From Marsupella aquatica (lineage: Eukaryota > Plantae > Marchantiophyta): a DNA stretch of 64,000 nt. Position numbers and translations under genes: made by a program. Positions 23,384 through 48,786 of the stretch are shown in pieces; the first letter of the stretch is position 1, and each line of letters opens with the position of its first letter. The stretch spans positions 22,235,168-22,299,167 of the forward strand of contig OZ316892.1 in NCBI GenBank assembly GCA_973895155.1, read 5' to 3'. A model generated the notes under the pieces. It saw only the letters and a list, made by a program, of their open reading frames with translations, was not told the origin of the DNA and ran no database searches.

Positions 23384-24681
23384 GGTCCTTGCTAGCTAGT
23401 GTAACTTGGGATTAATCGCGTAGGACCCCTCCATATGTTTATTTTTACCGGCATTATATATATCATTGTTGTATTTCATGTTCCCTCTACTATGAAAGGG
23501 ACCAGATTTCTTAATAAAGTTATGAGTATTCGTTTTCCACACCATATCTGATACAATGAACATCGCATAATTGTCGAAAACATCTTACCTTAATTCCAAA
23601 ACCTTGTCCGATTCAGTCTGCATCGGACCCCTCTTAACAGTTATCGGATACTTGTCCGATACATTTCCGTTACTAATCTTATCGGAAGACATCCGATTCT
23701 AAAACTAACGGAAGGAAGGACCGTTTACATTTGCATCGGAAGGTTAACATGCGATTCAAAAAGAATGGCAAATTGCGTTACTATTGAAGTCGGACAATTC
23801 CGACGCATTTCCGATTTGTTTAGTGTCACGTCGTAGGCTTCGGCCTTAACTCAGACTTCAGCTTAGACGGGCACATCCCTCATAAATCTGAGGGTTCGGG
23901 CAGGAAGGGAAGCACGTAATGCACCTTATTCTCGTAAACTAGCGCTAAGTGCGCATACTGCTAAATACGGACACCTCCTAGGTATGGTTTGTGTTCCGCC
24001 GCTGGAACGTACCTTAGTCGATAGCAGGATCGACCCCGGCTTAAGGGCTTCTAAGCCTTCGTGCTGTCCGCCTTCGATCCGGATTCGATAATACAGGTCC
24101 TCAACCCGTGCTCGCAACCACTTACCCGCAGGCTGCACCCTGTGCACGTCTCGGGTAGTGCGTTCGGCCCGGCGCTGCCACCCATATACGAGAAACCCAC
24201 ACACATATGCGCACACATGCATACAATCTCGATTTACACGAAGGAAAAATGATGGGAAAGGATTTTACTACAAAGGGAACATATGCGTACACTTAGTTGA
24301 CACGACAGCCCTGGAATGCACAGGTTCAAGGCCAAGGGTGCACACTACAACGGAGCCCGGCTCCGCACTCGCCCGGCGAGCTTAGTCCTACCCCCTCCCC
24401 TTGGTACTCTGTCATTCCCAGAGGTCGGGACTCCCCGCATGTCCCGCGGATGTCCGACTCTGAAACTAAAAACCCCCCTGCCTCTACCGAGGGGTGCACT
24501 AAATACTAAGAGCCGAGGAACGGGGCGTCCTCCCGCCGAAGATTCGCTGACCAAGGTCCTAACTAAGCTGACAGTCAGGCCGGAAAATGGCTGTGTCTTA
24601 TTAGAAGATCCTAATCTACGCAGGCTGGACAGCACGGCAGTGCTGCTGCACCTAAGGCAGGTGCCTGTCCCAAGAGCCTGA

Positions 24682-27393
24682 CTAAGCCAATCCTAATCCT
24701 AATCTATTCCTACTCCACCGCAAATGCCTGGCACGCTTGCCAGAGCCACCCGAATGGGAACGGCCATCCCGCTGCCTTCGAAGCCTGTCATTGTCCGCTT
24801 TGAGGAGCTGGACCTGGTCTAGCAGAGATTTGTTCTCTCGCCTCGCCGCGTCCGTCTCCTCTGCTGCCTCCTGACATGCCTCCTCCAGCTGCTGGGCGTC
24901 GCTCGTCAGTTTACTCGCCAGCTGGTCCTGCTTCTCGGCCTCGGTTTGGAGCCGCGCCATCTCGGCCTGCAGCGTGGCTATCTCCGTCGCGTCCCGCTGG
25001 GCTCGCTCCTCGGCCTCCTCCAGGTCTTTCTGCCAGGTGACAGCTTGTTTCTTCAAACTGTCAATCTGGTTCCGGAGTCGTGTAATCTCGGCCTCGTTCC
25101 CAGCTTTGGCCTGTTCGGCTAGGGCGGTAAGAGCGTACGCCTTTGCTAACAACTCGTCGGCGGCTGCAACCTTGGGTCGTAGTTGCAGAAGCTCAGCCTC
25201 TTGAGCCGCCACTTCGTTCTTTAGGTACACGGACTCCACCCGGTACCGCTCTATCCTCTGAAGGGCCTCCGACTGGGCCCGACCTGCCTTTACGGCGGCA
25301 ACCAACTCCTGATTGAAGAAACAGGCTACCTTCCGGGCCATGAACTCCCCGGTATCCCGGGAAATTTGATGAGAGAAATCTCCCAGAAGCCCGTTCAGAA
25401 ACGTACCCTGTACGAAGAGTTCCGGGTGGTCCAAGTTGTGCCTGTCCGGATTTGGGCACGGGCAGACATCAACACGCGCAGGGGCCGGGGCAGTGACGTC
25501 CAGCCCTGGGGACATAACGTTGGAAGGGGCTGGAGTGTCCTCCTGCAGCGATGTCCGGTTCTCCGGAATTGCCACCGGCGGGTCCTTGGGAGACCCGGGT
25601 TCGGGTAAGACCTCTGCCGTACCAACTTCTGTACTTAGCCCGGCTAGTTGGTTCGCATCAACGGTTGCGACGACCGACCCCTCCGGCGCCTCCTCGGTTA
25701 CGTTTACTGCTATTTGTGGAGGTGGGGTGGGTGAAGCTGGCGTGTCCACTGGACTTCGGGCCTCGGGTTGGGGCCGTCTCTCCAATGCCGGAAAAACCCA
25801 CCTAGCTGGGACCAGCTTTGTAACGTTGATGCGGGGAAGGGTTCGTCGATCAAACCAGGCGTACCACTCCAGAATGATTTCAATGTGGCTAGCGAAATAC
25901 GCCTTCCCGCCAATGTACAGCGTCTTCCTTCGCCGCTCCATCTCTTCATGGAATTTCTTAGCGAAGTACGACGCCCATTTCCTAGGTCGATAGTTCTCGA
26001 CCTGGATGACCTGGGCGGCGGAGATCTCCCCCCGGGGTTCCATCATGTGGAGAGCGTACCTTTGGAACTCCAGCCACTCAGCTATCTCGGGCATGAGGCA
26101 GGTCCTCATCACGAACCCGTTGTCTACTGATCCCTCTGAGGGAAAACTTGAAGATTGGTACTTGGCCCCCTTGCCCCCGGGAGCCCGTGATTCGACTCGA
26201 TGGTCACCTTCGGGTAACCCGAAGATCATCTTGAGCCGTTCTTCTGTGAGGGACATATTCCTTCCCCGCAGCCGAGTCTGTTGACGTACGTCGTCATAAT
26301 TCTTGACGAATTCTGTCATGTCCTCCCCGTAGTACCTGCAAGTGTTCCAGGGGAGAGAGGCGAGGTGCTCAAATCCCTGAGTCTTCAGGTACACCGCATG
26401 CTTGGGATGGAGGATGTTGCTATGAACGTTTTCCCCCATCCGATGCATCGTTACCTTGGCTACGGCTACCGTGGCCAACGGTAACCCGGATGCACTGGCG
26501 GATTCCTTCCTCTTCTTTCCCCGTGACTGACTCGGGGAAGGTGATACTTCCCCATCCTCCCGATCGGGCCTGGGGAGTGCCACTGCGGTTGGTAATGGGC
26601 CCGGGGCGGCCATGGTCACCATGTTGTCTGCTGGGGCCGCTCCTGGGGTCAGAGCAGGGGGTGGGGACGATATAGTGTCGGCCCCCCGAGCGCTTGTTCC
26701 TCTGGGCCGCCTGGTCAAGGGTGGGGTAGCCTCATCGTCATCGCTAAGATCCACAGCGTTGATGATAGAGCGTACCTGTGCTGGCTGGGTGATAGGTGGT
26801 GGGGTTTGGCTAGGCTGCGGCTGAGGCTGAAGCTGAAGCTGAGGTTGCATGGGCACGGGTACGGGTACGGGTACGGGCACGGGTACGGGTACGGGTACGG
26901 GCACGGGCCCGGCTGAGTTGGTCATGTTGGTTGATGGCCGAGTTCCCAAGAAGCTCCGTAGGTGCTGGTAGAAGTTCTCCGAAGCGAGTGCGGACGCCCT
27001 TGTCGAACGGTTGGTACTGGACTCACCGTTAATGACAGCCCGAACCTGGGCAGGGATGTGGTCGAAGTGATGTCGCTGCAGGTCGATTGTACCCGGGATA
27101 TTGAAGACCTCGTCCGGAAGCCGAAGCAATGCTTCCCAGAACCCGATATATTTGTCTCCGTTGAAGAAGTACCCAGATACCTCAGCTGGTCGGTAAAGCT
27201 CGCTCTGAGACGGGTAGTCAAAGTTAAGGACGTAGTGGTGTCGTCCTGCTAGGCGGATGGCTCTCTCGTATTCGCGTTCGATCTCGTATCGGCGCGGGTT
27301 GGCGTGTTTCAATGAATCGGCCAAGTGCCTTCCGGTAGATAGGAACTGCGTCCAGAATCGAATGGCCAAGCTGGAGAGGATCGTGTGCGACAT
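24682..27393 (-). CDS. Intact 903-aa LTR-internal protein (N-terminal domain, Pro/Gln linker, plant-transposon-protein-like domain, coiled coil)
   Basis: Uninterrupted ORF; motif LPW...EFVKNY...RLRGRNMSLTEERLKMIFGLP.G; heptad-rich C-terminus. Confidence 0.85.
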   Translation of the reverse strand: MSHTILSSLAIRFWTQFLSTGRHLADSLKHANPRRYEIEREYERAIRLAGRHHYVLNFDYPSQSELYRPAEVSGYFFNGDKYIGFWEALLRLPDEVFNIPGTIDLQRHHFDHIPAQVRAVINGESSTNRSTRASALASENFYQHLRSFLGTRPSTNMTNSAGPVPVPVPVPVPVPVPVPVPMQPQLQLQPQPQPSQTPPPITQPAQVRSIINAVDLSDDDEATPPLTRRPRGTSARGADTISSPPPALTPGAAPADNMVTMAAPGPLPTAVALPRPDREDGEVSPSPSQSRGKKRKESASASGLPLATVAVAKVTMHRMGENVHSNILHPKHAVYLKTQGFEHLASLPWNTCRYYGEDMTEFVKNYDDVRQQTRLRGRNMSLTEERLKMIFGLPEGDHRVESRAPGGKGAKYQSSSFPSEGSVDNGFVMRTCLMPEIAEWLEFQRYALHMMEPRGEISAAQVIQVENYRPRKWASYFAKKFHEEMERRRKTLYIGGKAYFASHIEIILEWYAWFDRRTLPRINVTKLVPARWVFPALERRPQPEARSPVDTPASPTPPPQIAVNVTEEAPEGSVVATVDANQLAGLSTEVGTAEVLPEPGSPKDPPVAIPENRTSLQEDTPAPSNVMSPGLDVTAPAPARVDVCPCPNPDRHNLDHPELFVQGTFLNGLLGDFSHQISRDTGEFMARKVACFFNQELVAAVKAGRAQSEALQRIERYRVESVYLKNEVAAQEAELLQLRPKVAAADELLAKAYALTALAEQAKAGNEAEITRLRNQIDSLKKQAVTWQKDLEEAEERAQRDATEIATLQAEMARLQTEAEKQDQLASKLTSDAQQLEEACQEAAEETDAARRENKSLLDQVQLLKADNDRLRRQRDGRSHSGGSGKRARHLRWSRNRLGLGLA

Positions 27394-27494
27394 TCAGAGG
27401 AGATAGTAGTGGCAACCTAGAGAGAACGAGAGAGCTGGGGTCGAAGCTGGCGCGCGGACTGATGGACTGGTGCACTACAAAGGGTTGGCTCCCC

Positions 27495-27501
27495 TTTTAT
27501 A
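27495..27501 (-). promoter_or_regulatory. TATA box for the A2 LTR-internal ORF
   Basis: TATAAAA on the minus strand, at the same position as 6088-6094 in A1. Confidence 0.6.
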
Positions 27502-28207
27502 CTTTGAGGGCTTGTCGATCCCCGACGTCTCCTCGACGCCCATAGGTTGAACCGCTCACGCTTGTGGTGTACCGGCCACTCCGCCGGTCTGAGTCAGCGT
27601 GCGTCAGTGGCCGCTTCCTTAAGTTCGTTATACGGACCCGAGGGAGGGGCCCCTCCACGCTCGTAACCCGGGTGTGCGAATAGCGACCCGCCGCCAGCCC
27701 GAACCTGAAGTCGCCCTTATTGCCTAATGATGTCCTACCCCTAATGATTACCTAAATACTGTCGTTATGCTAATAATAGCGGCCTAAGACCCACCTAACG
27801 CGCGTGCCAAGCGCAGTTTAGACTGAATCACTCATTAACCGCCGTACCGGCGGCGTCACATTTAGTATCGGACGGCTGAGCTCTTGCAATATCGGAGCAT
27901 CGGAAAAATGCTAAAAATGTACTAGTGTAAGTAGATCCTATCCAACAAATGGAGCATGATGAATTCTTTAGATTTGGTCTCTCAGTTGCTCTATTAGTGA
28001 TGCATGTAGTTATTCCCTCAAGCGTTATCTCATCCATATGTAGTTTTTGTAACTGTCCTTTCCGAACTTGCTCGGTTTGACTGTGATCCTAGTATGGAAT
28101 AATCACGGTCAAACCAAGCTAGTATTTCTAGAAGTTAGAAGCACTAGTGACAATTGAACTCTGATATTCCCACTGCTGATTGAAGTGCATTGTTTGCGGG
28201 ATTTCAG

Positions 28208-28405
28208 GCTAATATTGTTGCAACAACTAAAATGTTGTTGAATGATAAGGAGGCCCCTCCCATATCAAGCCAACTTCAACATGATCCACAAGATGGATCC
28301 AGTAAAGTGCAGCCGGTGACAACAAAAGCTGAGGGTGAAGTATTAGGGAAGAGAGCAAGGACTGTGGAACGGGCTAGGAAGGTGACAAGCAAATTAAACC
28401 TGTGA
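28208..28405 (+). pseudogene. Probable last exon of the RING-H2 gene, displaced by the CACTA insertion
   Basis: Removing 12100-27927 and one TAA restores the donor GTAAGT at 12096. The acceptor TTTCAG ends at 28207 and is followed by the open frame ANIVATTK...KLNL*. Confidence 0.5.
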
Positions 28406-29084
28406 CTAGCCCTGAGCTTGGCACGATGCCCTTTAGCCCAAAGTCTCTATCTCAAGGTTCCTTCAGGAGGATGTTAGAGCTCATTGAAGTGAACTCTCAA
28501 CTTCCGCATCCACAGTTGCCCCAATCCGGTTCAATCAATCTTGTTCCCTCTGAGTCATCAATCAAGTCAAGAAAGAAATTGCAGCTTCATTTTGAACCTC
28601 CAGTTACAAGCTAAGCTGACCTGAAATTGGTGTGAATTTGATAGTTACATCAACCTCATACTAGAATCAGGGACAAATTGTGATTTGTGCATGCAAGAGT
28701 GGTGATGTACAATTGAAAAAATCAAAGTTTTGTTTTGATAAGTTTTACTCTGTGCAGCCAGTAGTCCGTGGCAGGCGCAACACATTATTTTGAGTTGGGG
28801 CCAGAAAATCTCTGCACTTAAAGTAAGTTCACTTCTGTTTCTCCACATTTGCAATTTTGCTGTTGTTTACAAGCATACCACTTGCTAGAAGTTACTTGTA
28901 ATGAATCTGGTTCTTGCAACCTGGACTACAGGTTCTTTCCCAAGGACCCCATGTCCGCACTTGAGGACTCTTCAACTACTTGAGGACAGTTCTTTGTCCT
29001 TATGTAGGGACTCATAGTCTTGAGACAAGGACTGCATGTCCTGATGATTGTAAGGACTGCCTGTCCTTGTATAAGGGCATTCTG

Positions 29085-29345
29085 GGGTACCTAAGGAGTC
29101 AGTGTCCTTATACAAGGACTCCGTGTCCTGGTACAAGGACTCCGACTCCTTATACAAGGAGTCAGTGTCCTTATACAAGGACTCATTGTCCTGATACAAA
29201 GACTCATTGTCCTGATACAAGGACTCGGTTTCCTTATACAAGGACTCTGGCTCCTTATACAAGGATTCATTGTCTTTATACAAGACTCATAGTCCTGATA
29301 CAAGGACTTGGTTTCCTTATACAAGGACTTTGTGTCCTTCAAGGA
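29085..29345. repeat. 21-bp minisatellite with a palindromic core (GTCCTTATACAAGGAC), ~12 copies with degenerate flanks
   Basis: Directly visible periodicity; it produces 7-aa periodic ORFs in several frames. Confidence 0.9.
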
Positions 29346-29497
29346 CTCGAGGTTCTTTTTGAAGAACTCAAGTACTTTCTATGGTTTGTCAAGGACCCAA
29401 GGTTCATCCAAAGTGGACTTTGATCCCTAGCCAAGGCCTTTCGATCCTTACCAATTCACAATTGAATTGAAGGTCCTGAGTTGAAAAATAGGTAGTC

Positions 29498-31743
29498 CTT
29501 GACGCCGATGACATGGTCCTTATTCTATGATCTGATTAACTAGGTTGCTGTATGCAAGGAGTAGCTATTGATACTGCATAACAATTAGCAAGATGGCAAG
29601 AATAAGGGCAATCATGGCATTAAGAGTAGGGAAATAAAAGCTATGTCGTAGGTGGTCGGCGACCATATCTCTTTCAATATGTCACCAAATCCGGATTTGT
29701 AAAGAGCATTGGAAAGATCTGGTCAAGGCGAGTAAAATTGATATAAAACACTTGGGAAACGGAGGTGTATTAAGGAAGATACGGCCTGATTAGTGTGATG
29801 GGTTAACTTGTGGCCGAAATTAGCGGGTTCGGCTTCAGTTTCGGGTTAACCCAAGCTTGACCACGGCTTAGCTTATGTGAGCACGGCTTCAGCTTAGCTC
29901 AGGTAAGCACGGCTTCAGCTTAGCTCAGGTAAGAACGGCTTCAGCTTAGCTCAGGTCAGCATAGCTTCAGCTTAGCTCAGGTAAGCACGGCTTCAGCTTA
30001 GGCTTAACCCGGGTTCGGATTAGATTGATCCCGGGTTAGACTGAACTCGGGTTAGCCTAAACTTGGGCTCAAGTTAGCATAGGTAAGCTCGGGTTTGGGC
30101 TCAGCTTAGGCTAGGTTAGCGGATAGCGGATAGCGGGTAGCGGCCTAACCCGAGACCACGGGTTAGCTCTACTCGGGTTAGATAGGATAGCTAGGTTAGC
30201 CGAACTCGGGTTAGCTATGTAACTCGGGTTAGCGCAGCAGTGAGTACCCCCTCTCGGTTGCGGGGGCATAACTCTCTATGTATTTGACTAAATCGGCTAT
30301 AATTGACCTCGTTGGAAAGAGGAGCTCAAGCCACTTCCAACGTTGTTATCCACGCAGCAAATGGTTGAATAGAGAAATCGGGAGAGGAGGCGCAAGCTCG
30401 CAAAAACCATGGAGGAGGGCCAAATCCAAAGTACATAGCCAATTTGAGATAGAAATAAAGTTGCGAGTTAGGGTTCAGTAGTTAGAGATAGTGGCGGCTC
30501 TGTTAGGGCTGGGATGGGGCTCCAGTAGCGTAGCATCCACCCATTTGGGCTCAATGAGAAAGTATATAGAGCAGCCCTCCGGTAGAGGCAGGGGGAACTT
30601 CAGTTGTGTGATCTCACGTAGATTGAGCAGCAGAGAGGAGCTCTGTGCAAGGAAGGCTGGGCTTGGAAGCTGGGTGTTGGGGAGAGCTTGGTTGTGCTAT
30701 TACTCAGGGAGTAATCAGCCACGCTTCACAGCAACAGTTGGCCAGGTTTGCAAGCTGGATTGTGGCTCTTTCTAGTAGGCAACACAACTGGGTTCTTTTC
30801 CCCCGATACAGAGCCTTGGCGATAGGTGATGTATTGGTGATTGTAAACTGTGGGGAGGATTTCAATGTGATTTGCGGTGAGCACATTAGGGAGGCTGAGA
30901 TACTGATTGAGGGGCAGCAGGAGGAGCATTTACAGTTTAGTCTGGCAAGGCTACGTGATCCATGGGGAGTCCCGGCCTTTGTCTGGTGGAGAGCACTAAG
31001 GGATTTATGGCCAGGGATGAGCTTGCAGGGCAAGCGTGAGGCCGGGCCTCATTATAGTCTGGGGTAGATTGCCGTTAGGCCTGGTACCAGCTTTGAAGTC
31101 AAGTCAACTGTGCATGCATAACTTGACATTCTGAAATGGAGGTGTGAGATCTGTACGTGTCCCCAAGAATGAAGTGCAATGAAGGAGGTTGAGTTCAGGA
31201 TTGAGCTTGCATGGCAAGCATGGGGCTTGCGGGGCAAGCACGTCACAATCTGGAGGAGACAGCCTTCGGCCCTAGTGTTCAGATCAAGTGTTCTCAGTGA
31301 ACTATTGTGCACATCTTTGAATCTAATTGAGTTTTCCTCTCAGGCCTCATTTCTCTCATGGATGTGTGTGTGTGTGAGGCAATCTGAGTGTATGATGGGA
31401 CTAGCAGCGCCATTGAGACGTGTACAAGGTGCATTGAAGCGGGCTGGGTGAGGACTGTCATAGCTCTGATTGCTGAGAGTGGAATGGCAGAGTGGTGGGG
31501 CAATGGCTTAGAAGTCCCTAAGCCGGGAATCAGTCAGGAGTCACTGGTTTATGGGTACATTCCGGCGGCGGAATAGAAACATACCTATGATAGTGAGCAT
31601 ACGTATAGACCTATGCGCACCGTAGCGCTAGGCCCTGTGTGTACGGGCCCGATATGAAGACCCCTTCTCACCAGAACTATCATGAGCGCAGATCTGATCC
31701 CCAACCTTGGTTCCTTGGGATTGAGCTTGGGTGATGTGTGATA
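29498..31743 (+). mobile_element. Old degenerate LTR related to family A but without the large ORF (family D); boundaries uncertain
   Basis: 30561-30605 (AGTATATAGAGCAGCCCTCCGGTAGAGGCAGGGGG) matches A1 9052-9095. 31505-31630 matches A1 9503-9620. Possible decayed ends TGACGCC / GTGATA with flanks TAGTC / GAGTC. Confidence 0.5.
29881..30000 (+). repeat. 26-bp tandem repeat GCACGGCTTCAGCTTAGCTCAGGTAA (~4.6 copies), followed by CGGGTTAG motifs to ~30235
   Basis: Directly visible. Confidence 0.9.
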
Positions 31744-32659
31744 GAGTCTTGCTATGATAGTCTGGTGTTAAGGGCATAAATTGGTATTTCTCGGCCTTCA
31801 CAACATCCCTTCGTGATCCTCAGGTACAAGGAGATGGTTTTGGCACCCATAGTGACGTTTTTGGTGTTAAGACCCATGTCAATCGCGTGACAGTGAGTGT
31901 ATGGCACCTCTTTCTCATTGAGCAAGTCAGGACACATACACTCAAACTTTGTGTTCCTGTTATTTGATAACCACAGATGGTCAAAGTGGTGGACCTTGCC
32001 ACCCAGCGCCCTCACCAATCCCAGCACTCACGCCTAAGTGCCCCTAGTGCTTGAATGCCTCCACAAAATACCTTGAGCACAACCTTGTGCCTCTTGCATC
32101 GCCAACGGCCCCTCCCATACAAAGCCGCACTTGCTCTCCAACACGACCGCTACTCAATGGTCCTCACTGTCTGCACAAGCAACCAAGCACCTTGGTAAAT
32201 AACCCTTCAGGATCTAGAACTTGCCAAGTCTAGCATCCTAACTCAAGCTCAACAGACATTGGTAAATAGGTCAACAATAGGTCCTCCCGACGCCATGCCA
32301 TAAGCTGGAACCAGAACCCACACCCATTGTTCGTCTAGAACAACTCCTTCCTTGGGCGCGGTCCGGGTTCCTCCTTGTACCTATCCATCACCAGCTGACT
32401 ACCCTGACCCCAGTACATGCTCATGGCCCAAATAGCGTAGCTTGTTCTAAAGCTTGTCCCAACACGCCGGGACCAGAATGGCTCTGACTCTAGCAACCAA
32501 CTTATGGTTTGCCCCACTGATGGTCTAGGGGCCAAGCACCCTTGGAAGTCAACCTCCACACCTACTTGGCCTTGCCTCCCCAACGCAAGCTCCATTGGGA
32601 GATTGGACGTGGCTTGGCTGTTGTTCGACAGGATTTGGCAAGTGGGCGAGATAACACCC

Positions 32660-34131
32660 TGTGATGCCTAGCTAGGAATCACTAGGCCAGTTAAGTGGGG
32701 AAAAGGAGGTGTACCCTATAAACACATTAGTATAGTAACAAAAACAAGGAAAATATAAACAATTAAGGGTGACTATGGAACCCGGGCCGTGGCCGGAGGT
32801 AAGGACGTCGGGGGAGAGAACACAATTAGGGTTAGGGCGTGCTAAGCATCGGCGGCTAGGGGTAACCAACGGGAGGAAAAACTAGAGGAGGAGAGGGGTA
32901 AGGACCGCTTGCGAGGAATGGTGGCTCATTTGCAAGCACGAACTGGGCAGACAACTACGGAAGGCCAACTACTATCAGCTGCTTAGGCAAGCACTCGGGG
33001 CGGGAGCAAATACCAACGATCGAGTCAAGGAGGGTATGAGAAACGTCAATCAAGCAGCACATTTTTGGGGATGCCTGTTCGAACGGGCAACTGAGTACAT
33101 TAGGACTTACGAGGATGAAGAATCGGAGAGAGCAGCTCGAGAACGGCAGGAGCTCGCTCGACTATGGGAGCTACAGAAGTCCGCCTTCTTAGGAGGAGAA
33201 ATCATCAAGGCCGAGTTCTTGTGGACTCCTACTGCCAATCAGCTCGATGACCTTTTGTTTTGCGAAGACAGAATTGTCGGCATTTGGGAAGCCATCAACC
33301 GCTGCAACAACGCGCACTAGGAGTTGAAGGGTAGCACGGAGGGGTGGACAAAGGCAACTGTGCTAGGAGAAACATCCACGGCAGCCGAGATGAAGAGGAA
33401 AGGAAATAACAACAAAGAGGCCACCCCGACAAAAAGAATGAGGTCGGCGGCACCAAGGAAGCCAGTAGAGCAGCAGAATAGGAGGCAGGGAGAAGCCAAA
33501 GAGGAGGAGGTCGATCCCATCAATGCCATTCCAACAAAGGATGACACCTAGAAAGGCTGGGCGGCGACCCTACCAGAGGAAGTGCAATTACATTTTGCAC
33601 GGGAGGAGGATGCATGCTTTACGGCCATGCAGACCAAGAAGTACGAGGGCTTCATGGCCGGATCCGGCTTGGAAGCCTTTGTAAGATTACCATGGCTGAA
33701 GCCGGAGGTGCCGGACTCAGACTTATTAGAATTCGTGGGATCATGGGAACCCGAGACCAATTCCACGAGGGTGTATGGGAAGGATTTCTATCTCACTCCC
33801 CGGGTGATTGACGAGGTGTTTGGCTTGCCAATGGGTAATAAGACCAAGGTTGATACCAGGAAGACCTTACCTGACAAAGAGTTTCGGACGTTCCCAGGAC
33901 CATCAACGAAGAATGGCTTCTTCCGGAATACCTGCACCAACCCGCACATCAGAGAGATGATCAATTTCTTGCGGGTGACCATGCATTGTAACTTGCCGAG
34001 GGCAGAGATCGGCAAGGCTTAGGTCTACCTGGTAGAAAGGCCAGACCCAAGCTGGGATTACAACGGGTACCTCCTCAACCAACTGAAGAAGATCTTGAAG
34101 GAGGAACAGCAGGTGATTGGTGTGGGAAGCG
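32660..34131 (+). mobile_element. Truncated, decayed LTR of family B (copy C1) with a pseudogenised LTR ORF
   Basis: Starts TGTGATGCCTAG, like the B LTR. ORF fragments 33036-33320, 33324-33551 and 33582-34022 match the 1228-aa protein, with TGG/CAG>TAG stops. Confidence 0.9.
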
Positions 34132-37100
34132 TGTGATGCCTAGCCAGGAATCACTGGGCTAGTTTAAGTGGAAAATGGAAGTGTACCCTAGAAACACCTT
34201 AGTATAGTTACAAAAATAAGGAAAATATAAACAATTAAGGGTGACTATGGAACCCGAGCCGAGGCCGGAAGTAAGGACGCCAGGGGAGAGAACACGATTA
34301 GGGTTAGGGCACGCTAAGTGCCGGCGGCTAGGGGTAACCAACGGGAGGGAGAACCAGAGGAGGAGAGGGGTAAGGACCGCTTGCGAGGAATAGTGGCTCA
34401 TTTGCAAGTACAAACTAGGCAGGCGACTACGGGCGGCCAACTACTGTCAACTGCTTAGGCAAGCGCTCAGGGTGGGAACAGATACCGATTATCAACTCGA
34501 GAAGGGTATGAGCAACGCCAATCAAGCGGCACATTTTTGGGGATGCCTGTTCGAATGGGCAACTGAGTACATTGGGACTTACGAGGATGAAGAATCAGAG
34601 AGAGCAACTCGAGAACGGCAGGAGCTCGCCCAATTGTGGGAGCTGCAGAAAGCTGCCTTCTTAGGAGGAGAACTCATCAAGGCTAAATTCTTGTGGACAC
34701 CTACTGGCAACGAGCTAGACGACCTGCTGTTTTGCGAAGACAGAGTCATCGGCATCCGCGAAGCCATCAAACGCTGCAACGACATACACTAGGAGTTGAA
34801 GGGTAGCATGGAGGGGTGGACAAAGGCAACCGTGCTAGGAGAGACATCCACGACAGCCGAGATGAAGAGGAAGGGAAACAACAACGAAGAGGCCACCCCG
34901 GCAAAAAGAATGAGGTCGGCGGCACCAAAGAAGCCAGCAGAACAGCAGAGCAGGAGGCAGAGAGAAGCCGAGGAGGAGGAGGTCGATCCCATCAACGCCA
35001 TTCCAACAAGAGATGACACCTGGAAAGGCTGGGCGGCGATTCTCCCCGAGGAAGTGCAATTATACTTTGCACGGGAGGATGCATGCTTTACGGCTATGTA
35101 GACTCGGAAATACCAGGGCTTCATAGCCGGATCCGGCTTGGAAGCCTTCGTAAAGTTACCGTGGTTAAAGCCGGAGGTGCCGGATTCAGACTTACTAGAA
35201 TTCGTGGGATCATGGGAGTCCGAGACCAATTCCACAAGGGTGTATGGGAAGGATTTCTATCTCACTCCCCAGGTGATTGCCGAAGTGTTTGGCTTGCCGA
35301 TGGGCAATAAGACCAAGGTAGATACCAGGAAGACTTTGCCAGACAAGGAGTTCCGGTCATTTCCAGGGCCTTCAACAAAGAATGGCTTCTTCTGAAACAC
35401 CTGCACCAACCCGCATATAGGAGAGATGATCGGTTTCTTGTAGGTGACCATGCATTGCAACTGGCCGAGACCAGAGATTGGCAAGGCACAGGTCTATCTG
35501 GCAGAGAGGCCAGACCCAAGCCGGGACTACAATGGTTACCTCCTCACTCAACTAAAGAAGATCTTGAAGGAGGAACAGCTGGTGATCGGCAAGGGAAGCG
35601 TGTCCCGGCTTGGCTATCACGTACCGCTATTATGCCGGTATGCCCGAAGTAAGACCTTTGCCCCGGTACTTCCCCTACAGGCAAGGGCACCAGAGGAGGT
35701 TCCGGAATAGAGGCCAGCAACGGAGAAACCCAACCCGCCCGACAGTCCTACAATCGAGCAGGTGTTTAGGCCAAGGATGGAGGACTTGCCAATGCAGCAA
35801 CCAGGCATGCAGAATCTGCTGAAATTGCTGGAGAAGGAAAAGAGAACGGCAACGGCAACGGCACCAATATAGGACACTGCTCTAGAGGTAGGCCTAAGCC
35901 GGCTTACAAGGGAAAACCCCTTTACTGGAGTCAAGGAGAGAAGGAGGCCGGAACACGAGCCGGGAGTCCGGATGTATGTAGGAGCCTCTAGTCCCGAAGC
36001 CGAGGAGAAGCAGGCCGTAGCTCCCGGCCACGACAAGGACAACAAGAGATCAACACGGAAGCCGGAGGAGGAACCAAGACCGGTGAGAGGTGAAGCCGTG
36101 TTCACGACAAAACCAGGAGAACAGCGGGAGAAGCCGGTAGTCCAAGCCGAGGAGGAGGCGGTGGAGGACTACAGCAATGATAACTCCGGCTACGGAACGG
36201 ATCATCATGTTCCAGGAGTAAGGACCTGTGGCCGATTCATCCCCACGCTCCCAAAAGTAGTTCGAGGAGACCCGACCCAGCAGAGCAGCCCCGAGTCTCC
36301 CCCACCAGATGTCGCTCCCCCGAGCTTTGACGGCATAAAACAGACGGCGCAGGAATTTCAGGAGCAAATCAGGGAGGAAGAGGAGGCAGCCCTGGCTAGG
36401 GAGAAGGATTTACCAGGAGGAGAATGGCCAGAGGACATCAGGCGGCTTGCAGAAAAACGAAGCAGCCCTCCAGCCACAATAGAAGAGATCCGCAAGGCGG
36501 CTTGGGAACAAAGGCCGCGGTGGATGATGCCGATGACTTCTACTTCCTCCACCTATGCTAAAAATAGAGCCATGGAGTACGGGGAGATGTGTGGAGAGCT
36601 GGCGCTCAGCATCTTTGGGGAGGAGTTGGAGCAAGGACCCTTTTTTCAGAGGGAGATGTTGGAGAAGCGCCAATTAGAAGAAGCGGTGGCTTTGGAAAGA
36701 AGCAAGAAGGACGAGGTCATCCATCGGCTTAGGGCAAGGGAAGCCTAAATCAAAGACCTGAGGGCGGCCAAGAAAGCCCAAGATGAGCTGCGGATTAAGC
36801 GGCATGAGCTAAATATCATGCAAGGCCAATTGGATACCGCACAATCTGATAATCGGATTATCGAGAATAAACTGACTCGAACCCAAGGAGAGTTGGCCGA
36901 TGCGATCAAGGAGTGGGAGAAGTGGAAGCGAGAGCTAAGGGATGCAGAGGAGGCCCACATAACAGCCAACAACCGGGCCATGGCGGAGACCCAGAGAAGG
37001 GAAAGGGCGTTGAAGGGGGAGCTCGAGGATATCCGCGGAGCCCTTGAGCAGAAGGAGGCTGAGTTAGGGAAATCCTATCAAGGGATTATTGCACTGCAGC

Positions 37101-37913
37101 AGGAGCTTGCGTCCCTGACGGCCAGCTTCAAGGCCGACCTACGAGAGAAGGACAACCAGCTCGACCAGACTTATGCCAAGATGAATAAAATGGAGTTTGA
37201 GGTCTAATGGAGCTCAACAAAGAGCTAAGAGCAACCTAGGAGGAGAGGGCTACCTTCAAGAAGGAATTGGAGGAAGCCCATAAGGAGCTGGAGGAGGCGT
37301 GCAAGGACCTGGACGAAGTGCAGGAAGAGTTGGAGGAAAGCACGCGGAAGCTGGAAAACTTACAACGGCAAGCCGACAACCAAACGGAGCGGCTGAAGAA
37401 ACAAGCCGCAGTATTTAAGTGCTTGGCTTCTTCCAGACCAACTCCAACTGGGGCAACCAAGTTACCAGGAGTGGTACTGGCCTAAGGACAAGCCGCGCCA
37501 CTTGCACCAGTGCCGGAGGTAAGTGGGAAGGGGCCAGCTGCCGAACCAGAAAAGAAGAAGAAGCGGAAACCTTCTGGGTCAAGGAGTAATACGGCTCCAC
37601 AGGCCATGGTGACTAAGGAGGTAAACCCAGCACCGACCTCAGGCAGGGTCACGACAGAGGATCCAACTACCCTAGAAGGAGGGGAGGGCAAACCCAAGGC
37701 CGGGATACTCGGTAATGAAGCCGAGGTACCGAAACTGCCACTTGAGTGTGCAGGGGAGGCCGTAGCCAAGGCTGATGCCGAAGCTGATGCCGATGCCAAA
37801 GCCGAGGGTGGACCCAGTCAGGCCGATGGAGAGTTGACTCAGTCCAGGGCAGGTAATCTGTCAGAGAACAAACCTACGGCAGTGGCTGAGGAGGAAGTGT
37901 TGGGGGCGTCCAC
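34132..37913 (+). mobile_element. Decayed LTR of family B (copy C2), 5' part, interrupted by the full-length element
   Basis: Second TGTGATGCCTAG start at 34132. Fragments 34472-37913 are colinear with the 1228-aa ORF and contain many stops. Confidence 0.9.
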
Positions 37914-38834
37914 TGTGGTGCGTCCCATGGCTCCCTAAACCCAAGAAACCCCCCAGCTCAAGCCGATTCCCGCAGGTTTCGTGCTTGGCGAGGCCGTTTC
38001 CGCGGCTTAGCGGCATGGGACGCTGCTAACCTTCTACTACTACTATTAACATTTTACACACATATACTGGACAGATCCTTCATCGGGTCATGAGATACGT
38101 AGCCGGCCTAATATAGGCCTTCCCCTGTCTTCCCCTGTCTTCCCCTCCGTCTTGTTAGGTATGTTTGGATTCCGCCGCCGGAATGATCCCCAATAGGCTT
38201 GGTTAAGCCGCTAAGACCTCTCTCAGCTCGACACATCCAACTCTCACTCCCCTGCTTACTTTCCTTCCTTCTGTTGATGTGGGCACTCTTCACACAAGTT
38301 AATGCGACACACAAATAGCAAAATGACTCATTCTGACTGAGTCATACCATGCACTTGCCATACAAACAGTACATCTCATACACAAGTTCTGCGAACTAAG
38401 CCGTGAGGCCAACTCTATTCAGCTCTTAGGCATGAGGAAACATGAATATACACAAGGGTCACTGTATGACTAACCGAGAGCTTCTCGTACTACTTGATCC
38501 CAGCCCGGCTGGTGCAAACTAAAAACTTGCTAAAGAAGAGGCCCTGAGCTCCCCGCTGCCCAGGTACTTATCCTGGTAGTGGATCCGCCATTCTTTGCAT
38601 CGTAAGCCTAATCTACTTAACAGTAATCTACTTGCCCGAATCTACCTATGTACAGCAAGGCAGGAGCACAAGTGTTGCTCCTACCAGTGGGACCGCAATC
38701 CCACTAAGCTAAGTGTCAGGGCCGCTCCTGGTTCTGATCCTAATCCTAAACGTGGAGATCCGCGCCCGCCCTGCCCACTCACGCCTCCTCCCTCCACGTC
38801 CGCCTTCCCTAAAAGGAACGGCGCCCTTGCACCG

Positions 38835-41800
38835 TCACGACACCGGTGGTGGATCCTCAATGGACGCCCCCAACACTTCCTCCTCAGCCACTGCCGTTGG
38901 CCCGCCTACTGACAGATTACCTGCCCTTGACCGAGTCAACTCTCCATCGGCCTGACTGGGTCCACCTTCGGCTTCAGCCTCGACACCGGCCTCGGCAATA
39001 CCCACGGCTTCGGCCTCAGCCACTCCCACGGCTTCGGCTTCAGCCACTCCCTCGGCTTCGGCCTCAGCCACCCCCACGGCTTCGGCCTCCCCTTCCCCTA
39101 GGGTAGTTGGATCCTTAGCCGTGACCCTGTCTGGGGTCGGTGCTGGGTCTACCTCCTTGATCACCACGGCCTGTGAAGTCGTATTACTCCTTGACCCTGG
39201 AGGTTTCCGCTTCTTCTTCGTTGGTGGCTCGGCAGCTGGTCCCTTCCCCTTCCCACTTACTTCCGGCACTGGTGCAGTTGACGCGGCTTGTCCTTCGGCA
39301 ATTACCACCCCTGGTAACTGGTTTGTCCCAACGGGAGATGGACCTGCTACAGCTAAGCATTTAAATACTGCGGCTTGTTTCTTCAGCCGCTCTGTTTGGT
39401 TGTCGGCCCGCCGCTGTAGGTTCTCCATCTTCCTCGTGATTTCCTCCAACTCCTCTTGGGTTTCATCCAGGTCCTTACGTGCCCCCTCCAGCTCGTTTTT
39501 GGCCTCCTCCTGCTCCCTGTGGGCTTCCTCCAATTCCTTCTTCAAGGTAGCCCTCTCCTCCTGGGTTGCTCTTAGCTCCTTGTCGAGCTCTGCAATGATG
39601 ACAGACTCCATCTGGTTCATCTTGGCGTAAGTCTGTTCGAGCATCTCGTCCTTCTCCCTTAGGTCGGCCTTGAAGCTGGCCGTCAGGGACGCAAGCTCCT
39701 GCTGCAGCGCCATAATCCCTTGATAGGATTTCCCTAACTCGACCTCCTTCTGCTCAAGGGCTCCGCGGATTTTCTCGAGCTCCCCTTTCAACGCCCATTC
39801 CTTTCTTTGGGTCTCCGCCATGGCCCGGCTGTTGGCTGTTATGTGGGCCTCCTCTGTATTCTTCAGCTCTTGCTTCCACTTTTCCCTCTCTTTGATCGTG
39901 TCGGCCAACTCTTCCTGCGTCTGAGTCAGTTTATCCTTGATATTCTGATTATCAGCCTGCGCGGCGTCCAACTGCCCCTGCATGATGTTCAGCTCATGTT
40001 GTTTAATCCGCAGTTCATCTTGGGCTTTCTTGGCCGCCCTTAGATCTTCAATCTCGGCTCCCATCCTCCTAAGCCGCCGAATGACCTCGTCCTTCTTGCT
40101 TCTCTCTAAAGCCACCGCTTCTTCTAATTGGTGCTTCTCCAACTGCTCCCTATGGAAAAAGGGTCCTATCTCCAACTCCTCTCCAAAGATGCCGAGCGCA
40201 AGTTCCCCACACATCTCACCATACTCCATGGCTCTATTCTTAGCGTAGGTGGAGTAAGTAGAAGTGATCGGCATCGCCCATCGTGGCCTCTGCTCCCAAG
40301 CCGTCCTGCGGATCTCTTCAATCGTGGCTAGAGGTTTGCTTCCTTTTTCGGCTAGCCGCCTGATGTCCTCCGGCCAATCTCCTCCTGGTAAATCCTTTTC
40401 CTTAGCCAGGGCGGCCTCTTCCTCCTGCTTGATTCGCTCCTGAAATTCCTGCACCGTCTGTTTTATGCCGTCGAAGCTCGGGGGAGCAACATCTGGTGGG
40501 GGAGACTCAGGGCTACTCTGCTGGTTGGGGTCCCCTCGCACTACCCTTGGAAGTGTGGGGACAAACCGGCCACAGGTCCTTACTCCTGGAACGTGATGGT
40601 CCGACCCATAGCCGGAATTATCATGGCTGCAGTCCTCCACTGCCTCCTCTACCTCTTGGACGTCCGGCTTCTCCCTCTCCTCTTCGTCGGTAGGAGCTTC
40701 AGGCAATTCTGCCTCAGATTCGGAGCTTGAGGTTCCCACGTACATTCGAACACCTGGCTTGGATTCCGGCCTGATTCTCTCCTTGTCTCCAGCAAAGGGG
40801 TTTTCTCTTGTGAGCCGGTGTAGGCCTACCTCTGTAGTAGTGTCCTGCATTGTTGCCGTTGCCGTTGTTGTTGCCGATGTCGATTTCTTTTCTTTCTCCA
40901 GTAGTTTCAGCAGACTCTGCATGCCTGGTTGCTGCATCGGCAAGTCTTCCTTCCTGGGCCTAAACACCTGCTCGATCGTAGGACTAACAGGTGGTTGAGG
41001 CTTCTCAGCCAACGGCCTCGGCGTTGGAGCTTCCTCGGGTGCCCTTACCTGCAGGGGAAGTACCGGGGCAAAAGTCTGACCTCTGGCATACCGGCACAAC
41101 AGCGGCATGTGATAGCCAAGCCGCGACACGCTCCCCATGCCGATTACCTGCTGCTCCTCCTTTAAGATCTTCTTCAATTGGTTGAGGAGGTACCCGTTGT
41201 AGTCCCGGCTTGGGTCTGGCCTTTCTGCCAGATAGACCTGTGCCTTGCCGATCTCTGCCCTCGGCAAGTTACAATGCATGGTCACCCGCAAGAAGTCGAT
41301 CATCTCTCCTATGTGCGGGTTGGTGCAGGTGTTCCGGAAGAAGCCATTCTTCGTTGATGGCCCGGGGAACGACCGGAACTCCTTGTCAGGCAAGGTCTTC
41401 CTGGTATCAACTTTGGTCTTATTGCCTATCGGCAGGCCAAACACTTCGGCAATTACCTTGGGAGTAAGATAGAAATCCCTCCCATATATCCTCGTGCAAT
41501 TGGTCTCGGGTTCCCATGACCCCACGAATTCTAATAGGTCTGACTCCGGTACCTCCGGCTTCAGCCATGGTAATCTTACAAAGGCCTCCAAGCCGGATCC
41601 GGCCATGAAGCCTTGGTACTTCTTGGTCTGCATGGCCGTAAAGCATGCATCCTCCTCCCGTGCAAAATGTAGTTGCACCTCCACCGGTAGGGTTGCCGCC
41701 CAGCCCTTCCAGGTGTCATCCCTGGTTGGAATGGCCTTGATGGGATCGACCTCCTCCTCTTCGGCTTCTCCCTGCCTCCTGCTCTGCTGCTCGGCTGGCT

Positions 41801-42521
41801 TCTTTGGTGCCGCCGACCTCATTCTTTTTGCCGGGGTGGCTTCATCGTTGATGGCTCCCTTCCTCTTCATCTCTGCTGCCGTGGAGGTTTCTCCTAGCAA
41901 CGTTGCCTGGGTCCACCTTTCCGTGCTACCCTTTAATTCCCAGTGTATGTCGTTGCAGTTCTTGATGGCCTCTCGGATGCCGACGACGCTGTCTTTGCAA
42001 AACAGAAGATTGTCGAGTTGATTGGAAGTAGGCGTCCACAGGAACTCGTCGTTGATGAGTTCGCCTCCTAAGAAAGCCGTCTTCTGCAGCTCCCACAATC
42101 GAGCGAGCTCCTGCCGTTCTCGAGCTGCCCTTTCTGACTCCTCGTCCTCGTAAGTCTTGATGTACTCAGTTGCCCGTTCGAACAGGCATCCCCAGAAATG
42201 TGCCGCTTGATTGACGTTGCTCATACCCTCCTTAGGTTGATCGTCGGTATCAATTCTCTCCCCGAGTGCTTGCCTAAGCAGCTGACAGTAGTTGGCCTCC
42301 CGTAGTTGTCTGCCTAGTTCGTGCTCGCAAATGAGCCACCATCTCCTGCAAGCGCTCCTTACCCCTCTCCTCTGCCGGTCCTTCTTCCCGTTGATCCTTC
42401 CTAGCCGCCGACGCTTAACGCGCCCTAACCCTAATCGGGTTTTCACCCTCAGCCTTACCTCCGGCCTCTGCCCGGGTTCCATGGTTGCCCCTAATTGTTT
42501 ATATTTTCCTTGTTTTGTCAC
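38835..42521 (-). CDS. LTR-internal ORF of 1228 codons (likely start ATG 42224 or 42482); homologous to the family A LTR protein, with a long coiled coil
   Basis: Intact ORF wholly inside the LTR; motif LPW..EFVGSW...RIYGRDFYLTPKVIAEVFGLP.G; EAEAVGVA repeats at the C-terminus. Confidence 0.9.
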   Translation of the reverse strand: MTKQGKYKQLGATMEPGQRPEVRLRVKTRLGLGRVKRRRLGRINGKKDRQRRGVRSACRRWWLICEHELGRQLREANYCQLLRQALGERIDTDDQPKEGMSNVNQAAHFWGCLFERATEYIKTYEDEESERAARERQELARLWELQKTAFLGGELINDEFLWTPTSNQLDNLLFCKDSVVGIREAIKNCNDIHWELKGSTERWTQATLLGETSTAAEMKRKGAINDEATPAKRMRSAAPKKPAEQQSRRQGEAEEEEVDPIKAIPTRDDTWKGWAATLPVEVQLHFAREEDACFTAMQTKKYQGFMAGSGLEAFVRLPWLKPEVPESDLLEFVGSWEPETNCTRIYGRDFYLTPKVIAEVFGLPIGNKTKVDTRKTLPDKEFRSFPGPSTKNGFFRNTCTNPHIGEMIDFLRVTMHCNLPRAEIGKAQVYLAERPDPSRDYNGYLLNQLKKILKEEQQVIGMGSVSRLGYHMPLLCRYARGQTFAPVLPLQVRAPEEAPTPRPLAEKPQPPVSPTIEQVFRPRKEDLPMQQPGMQSLLKLLEKEKKSTSATTTATATMQDTTTEVGLHRLTRENPFAGDKERIRPESKPGVRMYVGTSSSESEAELPEAPTDEEEREKPDVQEVEEAVEDCSHDNSGYGSDHHVPGVRTCGRFVPTLPRVVRGDPNQQSSPESPPPDVAPPSFDGIKQTVQEFQERIKQEEEAALAKEKDLPGGDWPEDIRRLAEKGSKPLATIEEIRRTAWEQRPRWAMPITSTYSTYAKNRAMEYGEMCGELALGIFGEELEIGPFFHREQLEKHQLEEAVALERSKKDEVIRRLRRMGAEIEDLRAAKKAQDELRIKQHELNIMQGQLDAAQADNQNIKDKLTQTQEELADTIKEREKWKQELKNTEEAHITANSRAMAETQRKEWALKGELEKIRGALEQKEVELGKSYQGIMALQQELASLTASFKADLREKDEMLEQTYAKMNQMESVIIAELDKELRATQEERATLKKELEEAHREQEEAKNELEGARKDLDETQEELEEITRKMENLQRRADNQTERLKKQAAVFKCLAVAGPSPVGTNQLPGVVIAEGQAASTAPVPEVSGKGKGPAAEPPTKKKRKPPGSRSNTTSQAVVIKEVDPAPTPDRVTAKDPTTLGEGEAEAVGVAEAEAEGVAEAEAVGVAEAEAVGIAEAGVEAEAEGGPSQADGELTRSRAGNLSVGGPTAVAEEEVLGASIEDPPPVS
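42498..42503 (-). promoter_or_regulatory. Candidate TATA box for the LTR-internal gene
   Basis: TATAAA ~95 nt inside the LTR, conserved in both B LTRs, C1 (32754) and C2 (34226). Confidence 0.45.
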
Positions 42522-42585
42522 TATACTAAGGTGTTCCTAGGGTGCCTTCCTGCTTTACCCACTTAACCGGCCGAGTGATTCCTAT

Positions 42586-45500: not shown

Positions 45501-45852
45501 TCATACCTCCATAAACTGGGATCTCGGCTGGACTAGCCGAGTCGGTCCCTTCCTTGGTGTCCATAGATTGTCCCCTTACCGGTCTATTCGGTTTTGAATT
45601 AGTGGTCGGCTCCCCTTCCTGCCTTGGCTCTAGATCGTGTCTGTCCATCTCATCCACCTCTTGCTCCTGAGAGTTAGGCCGCTGTGCTCTCTCGGCTTCT
45701 AATAGGGCCTCAATTTGTTCTGCCCTCGTAATCGGCTTGTATGCCGATCCCTTGGTATTTAATTCCTTGCCGATGATCGATGGCGTTGTGGACCCCGTCG
45801 GCTCTGCCACAACGCCTGCAGAAAATCCACTGTCCCTGCTACTGCTCCCCAC
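42586..45852 (-). CDS. pol: Pol: reverse transcriptase, RNase H, integrase
   Basis: RT motifs DYRKLN, MPFGLCNAP and FIDDF; RNase H VDVS..YSTTEREAL; integrase HHCC zinc finger, WGIDYIGP, SDRGTHF and YHPKANGLTER. The stop codon lies inside the 3' LTR. Confidence 0.97.
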   Translation of the reverse strand: MGSSSRDSGFSAGVVAEPTGSTTPSIIGKELNTKGSAYKPITRAEQIEALLEAERAQRPNSQEQEVDEMDRHDLEPRQEGEPTTNSKPNRPVRGQSMDTKEGTDSASPAEIPVYGGMRLERLEAELDPNLKKQINMIQARQYRKLDLGEGRELNLGRNLAPELEKEISDLLIEFQDVFAWSHQDLKGVDPTLGEHRIDLMLGAKSFRQPIRRMNPKYSLLVKTEIDKLVEAGFITPVLHSDWVSPIVIVPKKAGPDGKPKIRVCQDYRKLNEATLKDHFPLPFTDMVLDMVASHELYSFMDGYSGYNQIRIRQEDQIKTAFITEWGIYVFNRMPFGLCNAPAMFQRLMVNIFHDYLRKFMEIFIDDFAVFGKASKHAKYLRKTFMRCREVGLKLHPDKCFFAVTEGVLLGHKVSRKGIEIDKGKLAVWLDIMQPKNIKDVRSFLGCIGYYRRFIKDFAKLALPLTNMLKAGADFEPTPERVTAVVELKQMLVEAPVMIAPDWNKDFHVFVDVSGFCIGSVLSQLDEKGRDHPIYFASRQLADAERNYSTTEREALGVIYSCKKFRHYLLGYKVIFHTDHESLKYLVNKPDLTGRVARWILLLQEFDYELRIKPGKLHANADFFSRITGKPATDCIDDRFPDEELFVVEIASTWYPEILQFLSTSRLQPGLSREQAAVFVRKVRQYQCIKGILHKHGINGTIQRCLEKREVKRVLRAMHGEEAGGHFAPVTTSKKILNAGYWWPTLHKDVYQFIKQCDPCQRAGGPRASTRHPLHPILPLAPFEKWGIDYIGPLKPLTHPRRNKYIILATDYATKWVEARPTTKDDAITTARFMYEQIFTRYGASLELVSDRGTHFLNDIISRLIEQYLVKHRPTTPYHPKANGLTERANGIIGKILNKTVAQNKLDWDDKLFAAVFAYNLAYKSTTGHTPFFLTFGQEALVPMQLEIPTFQVTIEERASAEESLKEREYRLEALEEARMISAERVEYRQNIMKQQYDKRLKVVSIHTGDLVLLYDSRYSRFPGKLYTRWLGPFRVTMMFPNGSVQLANITGEVYPVHIHYDRLKKYYMDEDEVVREDASQLSGELCDA
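42600..42611 (-). other. Polypurine tract (TAAGTGGGGAGC)
   Basis: Purine-rich tract 2 nt before the 3' LTR in element orientation. Confidence 0.75.
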
Positions 45853-48560: not shown

Positions 48561-48765
48561 GTCGGTTGGAGACTCACTTCTCCTTACCGACTCTTCTTCT
48601 GGTATGTCTTCTTCGACGCCACTTCCAGTTTCGGAGCTACCAGCTCTTTCTGCCCCTCTCAGTCGCTGTGTATCATGCCACCCGGCGAGCTGCTTCCCTC
48701 GGCGTAAGGTCAGTCATTACCTACGCTTCCGTTCTAACTTCATATCTCACGGCTTAAGAAATGCC

Positions 48766-48782
48766 CCCTCCATCTAGCGCCA
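48766..48782 (-). other. Primer-binding site, tRNA-Asn type
   Basis: TGGCGCTAGATGGAGGG 4 nt after the 5' LTR; complementary, with one mismatch, to the plant tRNA-Asn(GTT) 3' end CCCTCCTTCTAGCGCCA (tRNA sequence recalled, not searched). Confidence 0.8.
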
Positions 48783-48786
48783 AAAA

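Follow-up and report, generated by a model that had tools for sequence, protein, structure and literature searches.

We found that two families of long terminal repeats (LTRs) in the genome of the liverwort Marsupella aquatica each carry a whole protein-coding gene, and that the two encoded proteins, on sequence comparison, are homologous in both their N-terminal and their central domains. The repeats, designated families A and B, lie in a 64,000-nt stretch of contig OZ316892.1 (assembly GCA_973895155.1, positions 22,235,168 to 22,299,167 of the forward strand), hereafter the window. The central domain is predicted to adopt the fold of VANC21, to our knowledge the only solved sequence-specific anti-silencing factor. 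On balance, we slightly favour the reading that the LTR protein is a sequence-specific self-activator, that is, a DNA binder of the VANC/PMD fold that would counter silencing by the host. The gene is one of the extra open reading frames (ORFs) that plant LTR retrotransposons carry.

The layout of the elements was read from a self-comparison of the window and inspection of repeat ends. Family A comprises two solo LTRs, both with TG...CA ends and a perfect 5-bp target site duplication (TSD): A2 (23824..27860, minus strand, 4037 bp) and A1 (5730..9736, plus strand, 4007 bp, TSD CAATG), which differ at 75 of 4006 aligned bases (1.9%). The edges of A2 and joints of its empty site were found in contigs of public sequencing runs (four of the nine listed runs were checked), and in contigs of two runs the depth of A2 was far above that of its flanks. 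Depth and empty-site joints together show that A2 belongs to a repeat family, the depth not being convertible to a copy number. No RNA run was listed among the public runs that contain the sequence, which has no bearing on whether it is expressed. Element B (37914..53470, minus strand) is a full Ty3/gypsy element. Its 3′ LTR (copy B3, 37914..42597, 4684 bp) and 5′ LTR (copy B5, 48787..53470), both on the minus strand, differ at 20 positions in 4684 bp (99.6% identity), and the element shows TG...CA ends, a 5-bp TSD, a primer-binding site (PBS; 48765..48782, minus, located by end inspection) and a polypurine tract (PPT; 42598..42610, minus) that overlaps the last pol codons, the pol stop codon falling inside the 3′ LTR. 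TSD, PBS and PPT rule out tandem duplications in place of LTRs. The gag-pol region (42586..48713, minus) encodes gag, a zinc knuckle, a protease-like motif and, in an overlapping frame, reverse transcriptase (RT), RNase H and integrase. Pfam returned the gypsy order gag-(protease)-RT-RNaseH-integrase, with neither a chromodomain nor an extra (archaeal) RNase H, and the top PDB match was Ty3 Gag-Pol (E 1.8e-91). The protease-like motif, without a Pfam match, is what we take to be the protease. The PBS is presumably of the tRNA-Asn type, a first reading as tRNA-Leu having been rejected; no tRNA gene lies within the 64-kb window. The gag frame (45762-48713, minus) is broken by one in-frame stop and the gag-protease and pol frames overlap, though the LTRs differ by only 0.4%.

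The ORFs of both families lie entirely inside the LTR. That of A2 (24682..27393, minus) is intact and encodes 903 aa, and that of A1, which starts at 6196 on the plus strand, is broken by an in-frame stop. The B ORF is intact in the 3′ LTR (38835..42224) and again in the 5′ LTR (49708-53097), on the minus strand and in sense to gag-pol. Two older B-type LTRs with broken ORFs, both on the plus strand, served for comparison: C1 (32660..34131), of which only the 5′ part is present, and C2 (34132..54015), which is split by B (37914-53470) and truncated near 54015. Between B and C2, counted from the ATG at 42224, omega was 0.24 over 1094 codons (P = 2.5e-49), while the other two reading frames gave 1.05 and 1.53. 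By part, omega was 0.13-0.16 in the N-terminal domain, 0.09-0.11 in the central domain, 0.24 in the coiled coil and 0.90 in the last 175 codons. The B ORF was under purifying selection, and the earlier description of the protein, made from the letters of the window before any database search (the sequence-only reading), as LTR-encoded and selected is borne out. For the whole ORF of A1 and A2, omega was 0.39 (P = 0.002); B3 and B5 differ by 11 replacement changes and one silent change, the pattern to be expected once a copy has inserted. The selection seen acts on the lineage of the element and is not evidence of use by the host.

The same analysis fixed the start of the B protein, for which the sequence-only reading had proposed ATG 42224. 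In the 86 codons upstream of it (84 alignable) omega was 0.97 against C2 and 1.25 against C1, and the stretch from ATG 42482 to ATG 42224 carries a stop in both older copies. A TATAAA at LTR position 95 (42498..42503, minus), invariant in B3, B5, C1 and C2, precedes ATG 42482 by only 21 nt, so that this ATG is likely upstream of the transcription start. ATG 42482 was rejected on these grounds, and since selection begins at ATG 42224, with none upstream, the B protein comprises 1129 aa. The leader before the B ORF (42225-42480, minus) contains splice-donor-like GGTAAG motifs, of which two recur in the majority of the copies B3, B5, C1 and C2, as well as a telomere-like TTAGGGTTAGGG repeat; in A, a pyrimidine tract ending in AG lies just 5′ of the ATG.

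The motifs that the sequence-only reading had quoted as shared all recur in the stated order in A2 and B, with GIWEAI in C1. Homology is clearest for the central domains of about 200 aa (A2 residues 305-520, 25834..26481; B, assigned by sequence, 41079..41675; both minus): BLASTP aligned them with 51 of 182 residues identical (28%, E 1e-19), and none of 2000 shuffles scored as high (z 23-36). For the N-terminal domains of about 105 aa (A2 residues ~6-114, 27052..27378; B 41913..42212; both minus) pairwise comparison gave little: 19 of 104 residues identical at E 3.5 in BLASTP, z 1.4 for A against B3 under BLOSUM62 (201 of 2000 shuffles as high) and 3.5 under BLOSUM45 (11-13 of 2000), z 3.8-5.7 for A against C1, and an hhalign probability of 9% (E 0.0035, 33 columns) for profiles built from the window only. 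The N-termini of C1 and C2 were nonetheless the two best non-self windows among 2316 six-frame windows. A hidden Markov model (HMM) made from A2 and seven database homologues, picked by phmmer score and by eye and containing no B-type row, decided the matter. It matched C1, C2, B3 and B5 at E 1.6e-4 to 9.1e-4 among 927 targets (next E 3.6), over model positions ~4-87 in C1 and C2 and 4-102 in B3 and B5, and gave B 20.7 bits against a shuffle maximum of 8.2 (961 of 1000 shuffles reported). Thus the claim that A and B are distant homologues with a common N-terminal domain, weak in pairwise comparison, became clear through outside relatives. A block before the coiled coil is possibly common to both proteins as well (z 2.4-3.8).

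Protein searches based on a word index found nothing for A residues 1-540 or B residues 1-400, whereas 74 proteins were retrieved when the central profile was run in a full HMMER search. Nine of the 20 relatives looked up had an organism name, eight being from Calypogeia fissa and one from Riccia sorocarpa, both liverworts; a search with the N-terminal alignment returned four proteins, all from C. fissa. Among 99 proteins, a count that takes in near-duplicates and the members of the profile itself, 95 have the central domain and 18 have at least 100 residues before it, 13 of these 18 carrying the N-terminal domain. In a midpoint-rooted tree of 40 central domains (short sequences and 12 near-duplicates omitted), A, B and a Calypogeia group form three separate well-supported sub-lineages, the joins among them being unsupported, which makes it likely that the two-domain layout is old. 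The central motif had been likened to the putative plant transposon protein and ATHILA ORF1-like families. This resemblance survives only in transitive form: Transposase_32 (PF20167), the family met most often among the relatives, was found in five of the 74 relatives at E ≤0.01 and in 7 of 54 at E ≤1, with a best score of 31.8 bits, all below the gathering cut-off of 45 bits, and these five weak scorers fall across a 96/96 branch of the tree. The A and B proteins themselves had no Transposase_32, ATHILA or PMD match in the Pfam scan. Two central-domain relatives, P0049 and P0056, are predicted to be fused to a DDE_Tnp_4 (Harbinger-type) fragment, either as a gene-model artefact or with the domain on a DNA transposon.

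AlphaFold2 modelled the A central domain with a pLDDT of 94.5 from 54 sequences. The top Foldseek match was the VANC21-DNA structure 9lnj (probability 0.98, TM 0.53, E 0.023), the next having E 2.4 and TM 0.14, and re-alignment to VANC21 with VIA gave Z 8.0 and rmsd 4.3 over 202 residues. In a Foldseek-independent search of 48,161 chains, VANC21 alone reached Z ≥5 (Z 7.6, rmsd 4.2, 201 of 216 residues), the next value being 2.4. An Atlas search with the central domain of one homologue provided leads to clusters of DUF1985 (the VANC domain) and PMD, both below 0.9 (PMD 0.81). Net charge of the central domain was positive in 38 of 49 full-length domains, with a median of +4. Although moderate in score, the VANC21 match is unique and spans the whole predicted domain. 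The match to a DNA-bound anti-silencing factor lends structural support to the guess, already made in the sequence-only reading, that the protein may act in anti-silencing.

The N-terminal domain, whose structure the sequence-only reading had left to prediction, was modelled as two long helices with a small helix/strand lobe (pLDDT 83.8 from 10 sequences); this value, and scores of at least 75 for four of the five models, argue that the unit is genuinely folded. No match to this fold was obtained by Foldseek in the PDB or among the viral predicted structures of BFVD, the best VIA value among 48,161 chains was Z 4.9, and an Atlas search with a homologue scored 0.75 at best. Pfam with the N-terminal alignment returned four weak single-member matches with no common family. 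A missing match does not prove a new fold. Both proteins are also predicted to contain a coiled coil, in A2 at about residues 693-853 (24835..25317, minus; crude heptad scan and sub-threshold coiled-coil Pfam matches) and in B at about residues 698-959 (39348..40133, minus; heptad scan). The two proteins had been described as ending in low-complexity sequence and a coiled coil; the coil stands in both, but in B some 170 unconstrained low-complexity residues follow it (omega 0.9). Basic patches precede the central domain in A and in B. In A2 a KKRK just before this domain (26506..26517, minus) is a candidate nuclear localisation signal, RKRK occupying the matching place in the relative P0076, and these basic motifs suggest that the protein may be nuclear. 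No transmembrane helix was detected, the maximum 19-residue hydropathy being 1.33 in A and 0.98 in B.

Outside the ORFs, the LTRs contain several candidate regulatory sequences. The putative promoter of the A2 ORF is a TATAAA at LTR position 360 (27496..27501, minus), about 108 nt before the ATG. Downstream of the ORF, a TATA-like box with a G-rich block (24474..24507, minus), shared with a third element, D (blastn E 6e-6), may be a second promoter, for genomic RNA. LTR DNA of the two families had been called not obviously alignable, which holds overall, the sole A/B DNA match being an inverted-repeat motif of 29 bp that lies 155-270 nt before the LTR 3′ end (0 of 500 shuffles as high). This motif, at 23979..24007 in A2 (minus, near the LTR 3′ end) and 38156..38183 in B (minus, in the LTR tail), is common to A, B and D and shows one compensated closing pair between A and B; Rfam returned no match. 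D (~29794-31892, plus) is an LTR-like element with no long ORF that starts TGTGATG like B. It carries the inverted repeat at 31560, the TATA-like block of the A tail and TTAG-rich tandem arrays at 29858-30233 (TTAG 35 per kb), and is possibly an ORF-less relative relying on the protein in trans. TTAG is also frequent in the non-coding parts of the A and B LTRs, with 16 occurrences versus 4.7 expected in A and 19 versus 4.6 in B from the window background. The aligned part of the B tail differs from C2 by 6%, although silent sites of the ORF have diverged by 0.44, which suggests constraint on the tail; recombination between copies is an alternative cause.

The anti-silencing self-activator is proposed by analogy with three lines of published work. 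VANC binds to short motifs that lie in non-coding tandem repeats of the transposon encoding it, and removes silent marks (PMC10398659), PMD-C proteins resemble VANC structurally and oppose Polycomb at DNA motifs (10.1101/2024.09.27.615353), and liverwort transposons are associated with H3K27me3 (10.1101/827881; 10.1101/2022.10.24.513474). Transcription would begin at the TATA near the LTR 5′ end and terminate in the LTR tail, which would make a 3′ LTR or a solo LTR a complete transcription unit. We consider it probable that the ORF lies in U3, with a second promoter in the tail for genomic RNA, rather than in an R of great length. A polypurine tract that newly arose where pol ends may have shifted the LTR boundary upstream, so that the LTR took in a 3′ extra ORF of the Athila style along with the promoter of that ORF; a PPT over the pol end, a TATA before the ORF and a conserved tail after it fit an ORF engulfed into U3 in this manner. 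The protein would then enter the nucleus, bind short LTR motifs, for which the TTAG-rich stretches are candidates, and protect its own family, non-coding relatives included, from DNA or Polycomb silencing. The C-terminal coil is predicted to mediate oligomerisation, as a coiled coil is in VANC21 (PMC13547354).

Several results weigh against this proposal. The VANC21 match has an identity of 8-10%, an rmsd of 4.2-4.3 Å and a Foldseek E of 0.023, and its Z of 7.6-8.0 is within the range that the tool labels 'possibly common', yet with a wide gap to the next match. A common fold by itself demonstrates no function, and the fold model covers the central domain of A alone. Searched against PDB sequences, the central and N-terminal profiles matched nothing under E 0.19, and so did not match VANC21; Pfam DUF1985 and PMD were found neither in A and B nor in any of the 74 relatives at E 0.01, and the isolated domains gave one chance match among six queries. 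The N-terminal domains of A1 and A2 differ by five replacement changes versus one silent change, with no signal of selection. At the DNA level, TTAG was chosen post hoc by eye and TAG, being a stop codon, is in any case scarce in ORFs, while TTAGG against dinucleotide shuffles (P = 2e-3 and 3e-4) fails Bonferroni correction. The hairpin regions fold no better than shuffles in A and B (z -0.3 and -0.9), with z -2.8 in D. The CpG observed/expected ratio of the A LTR (0.87-1.08) exceeds that of its flanks (0.43-0.61), and that of the B LTR (0.67-0.77) is hardly raised over gag-pol (0.64). The database relatives were compared as protein sequences.

A protein of the VANC/PMD fold might also bind DNA or chromatin without erasing silent marks, as a plain transactivator or as an adaptor that targets integration. 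The same evidence of fold, charge and nuclear motifs applies to it, B is an element without a chromodomain, and insertions in the window sit in repeats: B in C2, C2 directly after the truncated C1, and A2 next to a CACTA-type element. Such nesting is, however, expected in repeat-rich DNA; the three complete TSDs in the window have no motif in common (D, C1 and C2 showed no matching TSD), and the one relative with a solved structure acts in anti-silencing. We regard this explanation as unlikely, if a serious one. An RNA or particle role, in which an env-like, movement or RNA-chaperone factor binds the hairpins near the LTR 3′ end, appears improbable. The long coiled coil, the hairpin motif kept in three otherwise unalignable LTRs with its compensated pair, and the likening of Athila extra ORFs to retroviral env (PMC11728184) would agree with such a role, but the proteins have no transmembrane segment, the fold match is to a DNA-bound protein and the N-terminal domain is without a match among viral predicted structures. 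It is very unlikely that the gene plays no part in transposition, whether as a captured passenger or as one domesticated by the host. Plant extra ORFs are a heterogeneous group about whose function doubts have been raised (PMC6317226), and the A1, C1 and C2 ORFs are broken, but broken copies are expected after insertion, omega between element copies is 0.09-0.24 and at least three separate, well-supported sub-lineages have the layout of two domains plus coil.

By sequence definition, the protein falls outside VANC, PMD and Transposase_32, and it is predicted to have the VANC fold. With VANC21/VANC (DUF1985; PDB 9lnj, 9lnk) it shares the central fold over 201-202 residues, the status of a transposon-encoded accessory protein and a coiled coil. 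VANC, however, comes from VANDAL Mutator-like DNA transposons, whereas here the gene lies inside the LTR of retrotransposons and encodes an extra N-terminal domain; identity is 8-10%, no DUF1985 Pfam match exists and activity is predicted only. VANC-MAIN structural homology has already been published (PMC13547354). The PMD proteins (PF10536; MAIN, MAIL1, MAIL2; PMD-A of Ogre and others) are similar to VANC in structure and include retrotransposon-borne members (PMC13547354; 10.1101/2024.09.27.615353), but A and B lack a PF10536 match, the link running only through VANC and the PMD lead from Atlas, and no PMD structure was among the fold matches of the central domain.

Extra ORFs are common in non-chromovirus elements, with PMD, Transposase_28 or Athila ORF1 domains (PMC6317226, PMC11963269, PMC11728184). 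Athila ORF1 (PF03078)/Transposase_32 (PF20167) resembles the present case in being an extra ORF in sense orientation, placed 3′ of pol, of a large element that is non-chromovirus-like and has a 5-bp TSD, and nuclear motifs are reported for a sunflower Athila ORF (PMC11728184); A and B differ in having no direct match, in the presence of the ORF twice per element and in solo LTRs, and in their length of 900-1130 aa. Element B agrees with the Athila clade (Neumann et al. 2019) in its 5-bp TSD and in lacking a chromodomain and an archaeal RNase H, the PBS of that clade being of the tRNA-Asp or tRNA-Asn type. In the clade, though, the extra ORF stands between pol and the 3′ LTR, whereas in B pol runs into the 3′ LTR and the ORF is inside it. 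The Phygy and Selgy lineages were rejected for B, having 4-bp TSDs, other PBS types and no extra ORFs. The classes eORF-5′ and eORF-3′ denote position in the element, and no LTR-borne class was encountered in the parts of that survey available to us (PMC6317226). The sag gene in U3 of MMTV likewise makes the LTR coding, is kept in solo LTRs and has an omega below 1 (PMC4667437), but protein and host are unrelated, and here a large multi-domain protein of nuclear type lies wholly in a plant LTR of 4-4.7 kb. Titles and abstract openings of the literature on LTR-encoded ORFs and leafy-liverwort retrotransposons described no such arrangement, although element-level supplements may hold some. As far as these searches reached, the whole gene in a plant LTR, the N-terminal domain, confidently modelled and with no family or fold match found, and the setting in liverwort-type retrotransposons are new.

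Formation of a solo LTR is normally the host's way of deleting an element. Because the gene lies within the LTR, this recombination no longer deletes it, and solo LTRs then would not be inert; if the anti-silencing proposal is true, each would remain as the source of a trans-activator that serves both its family and relatives lacking the ORF. Retrotransposons would then possess a system of the VANC type, and the fold would occur on mobile elements from well beyond the eudicots. More tentatively, a radiation of liverwort Ty3/gypsy elements may have occurred in which each LTR is a cassette of promoter, VANC-fold binder with a new N-terminal effector domain, and target motifs. Eudicot VANC has been proposed to have arisen by capture of a host MAIN-like gene (PMC13547354); the fold on liverwort-type retrotransposons would offer an old common pool of transposon-borne domains as an alternative. 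Given the clear VANC21 structural match, the intact copies and a small candidate target region of about 1.3 kb of non-coding LTR, the role of such an extra ORF is directly testable in Marchantia.

Other features of the window include a SET-domain ORF (19593-19895, plus; PF00856, above cut-off), possibly a transposon-borne histone methyltransferase fragment, beside CACTA-type DUF4218/DUF4216 ORFs (20295-23383). ORFs without a Pfam name at 56734-58676 and 62045-62518 (plus), one with a DGNHR motif that we take to be ParB-like, lie upstream of a Ulp1-type protease ORF (PF02902), and the region is probably DNA-transposon cargo. Tandem arrays occupy 1253-3481 (period ~407 bp), 13465-13853 (~81), 28995-29348 (~21), 58950-59104 (~44) and 61020-61300 (~40).

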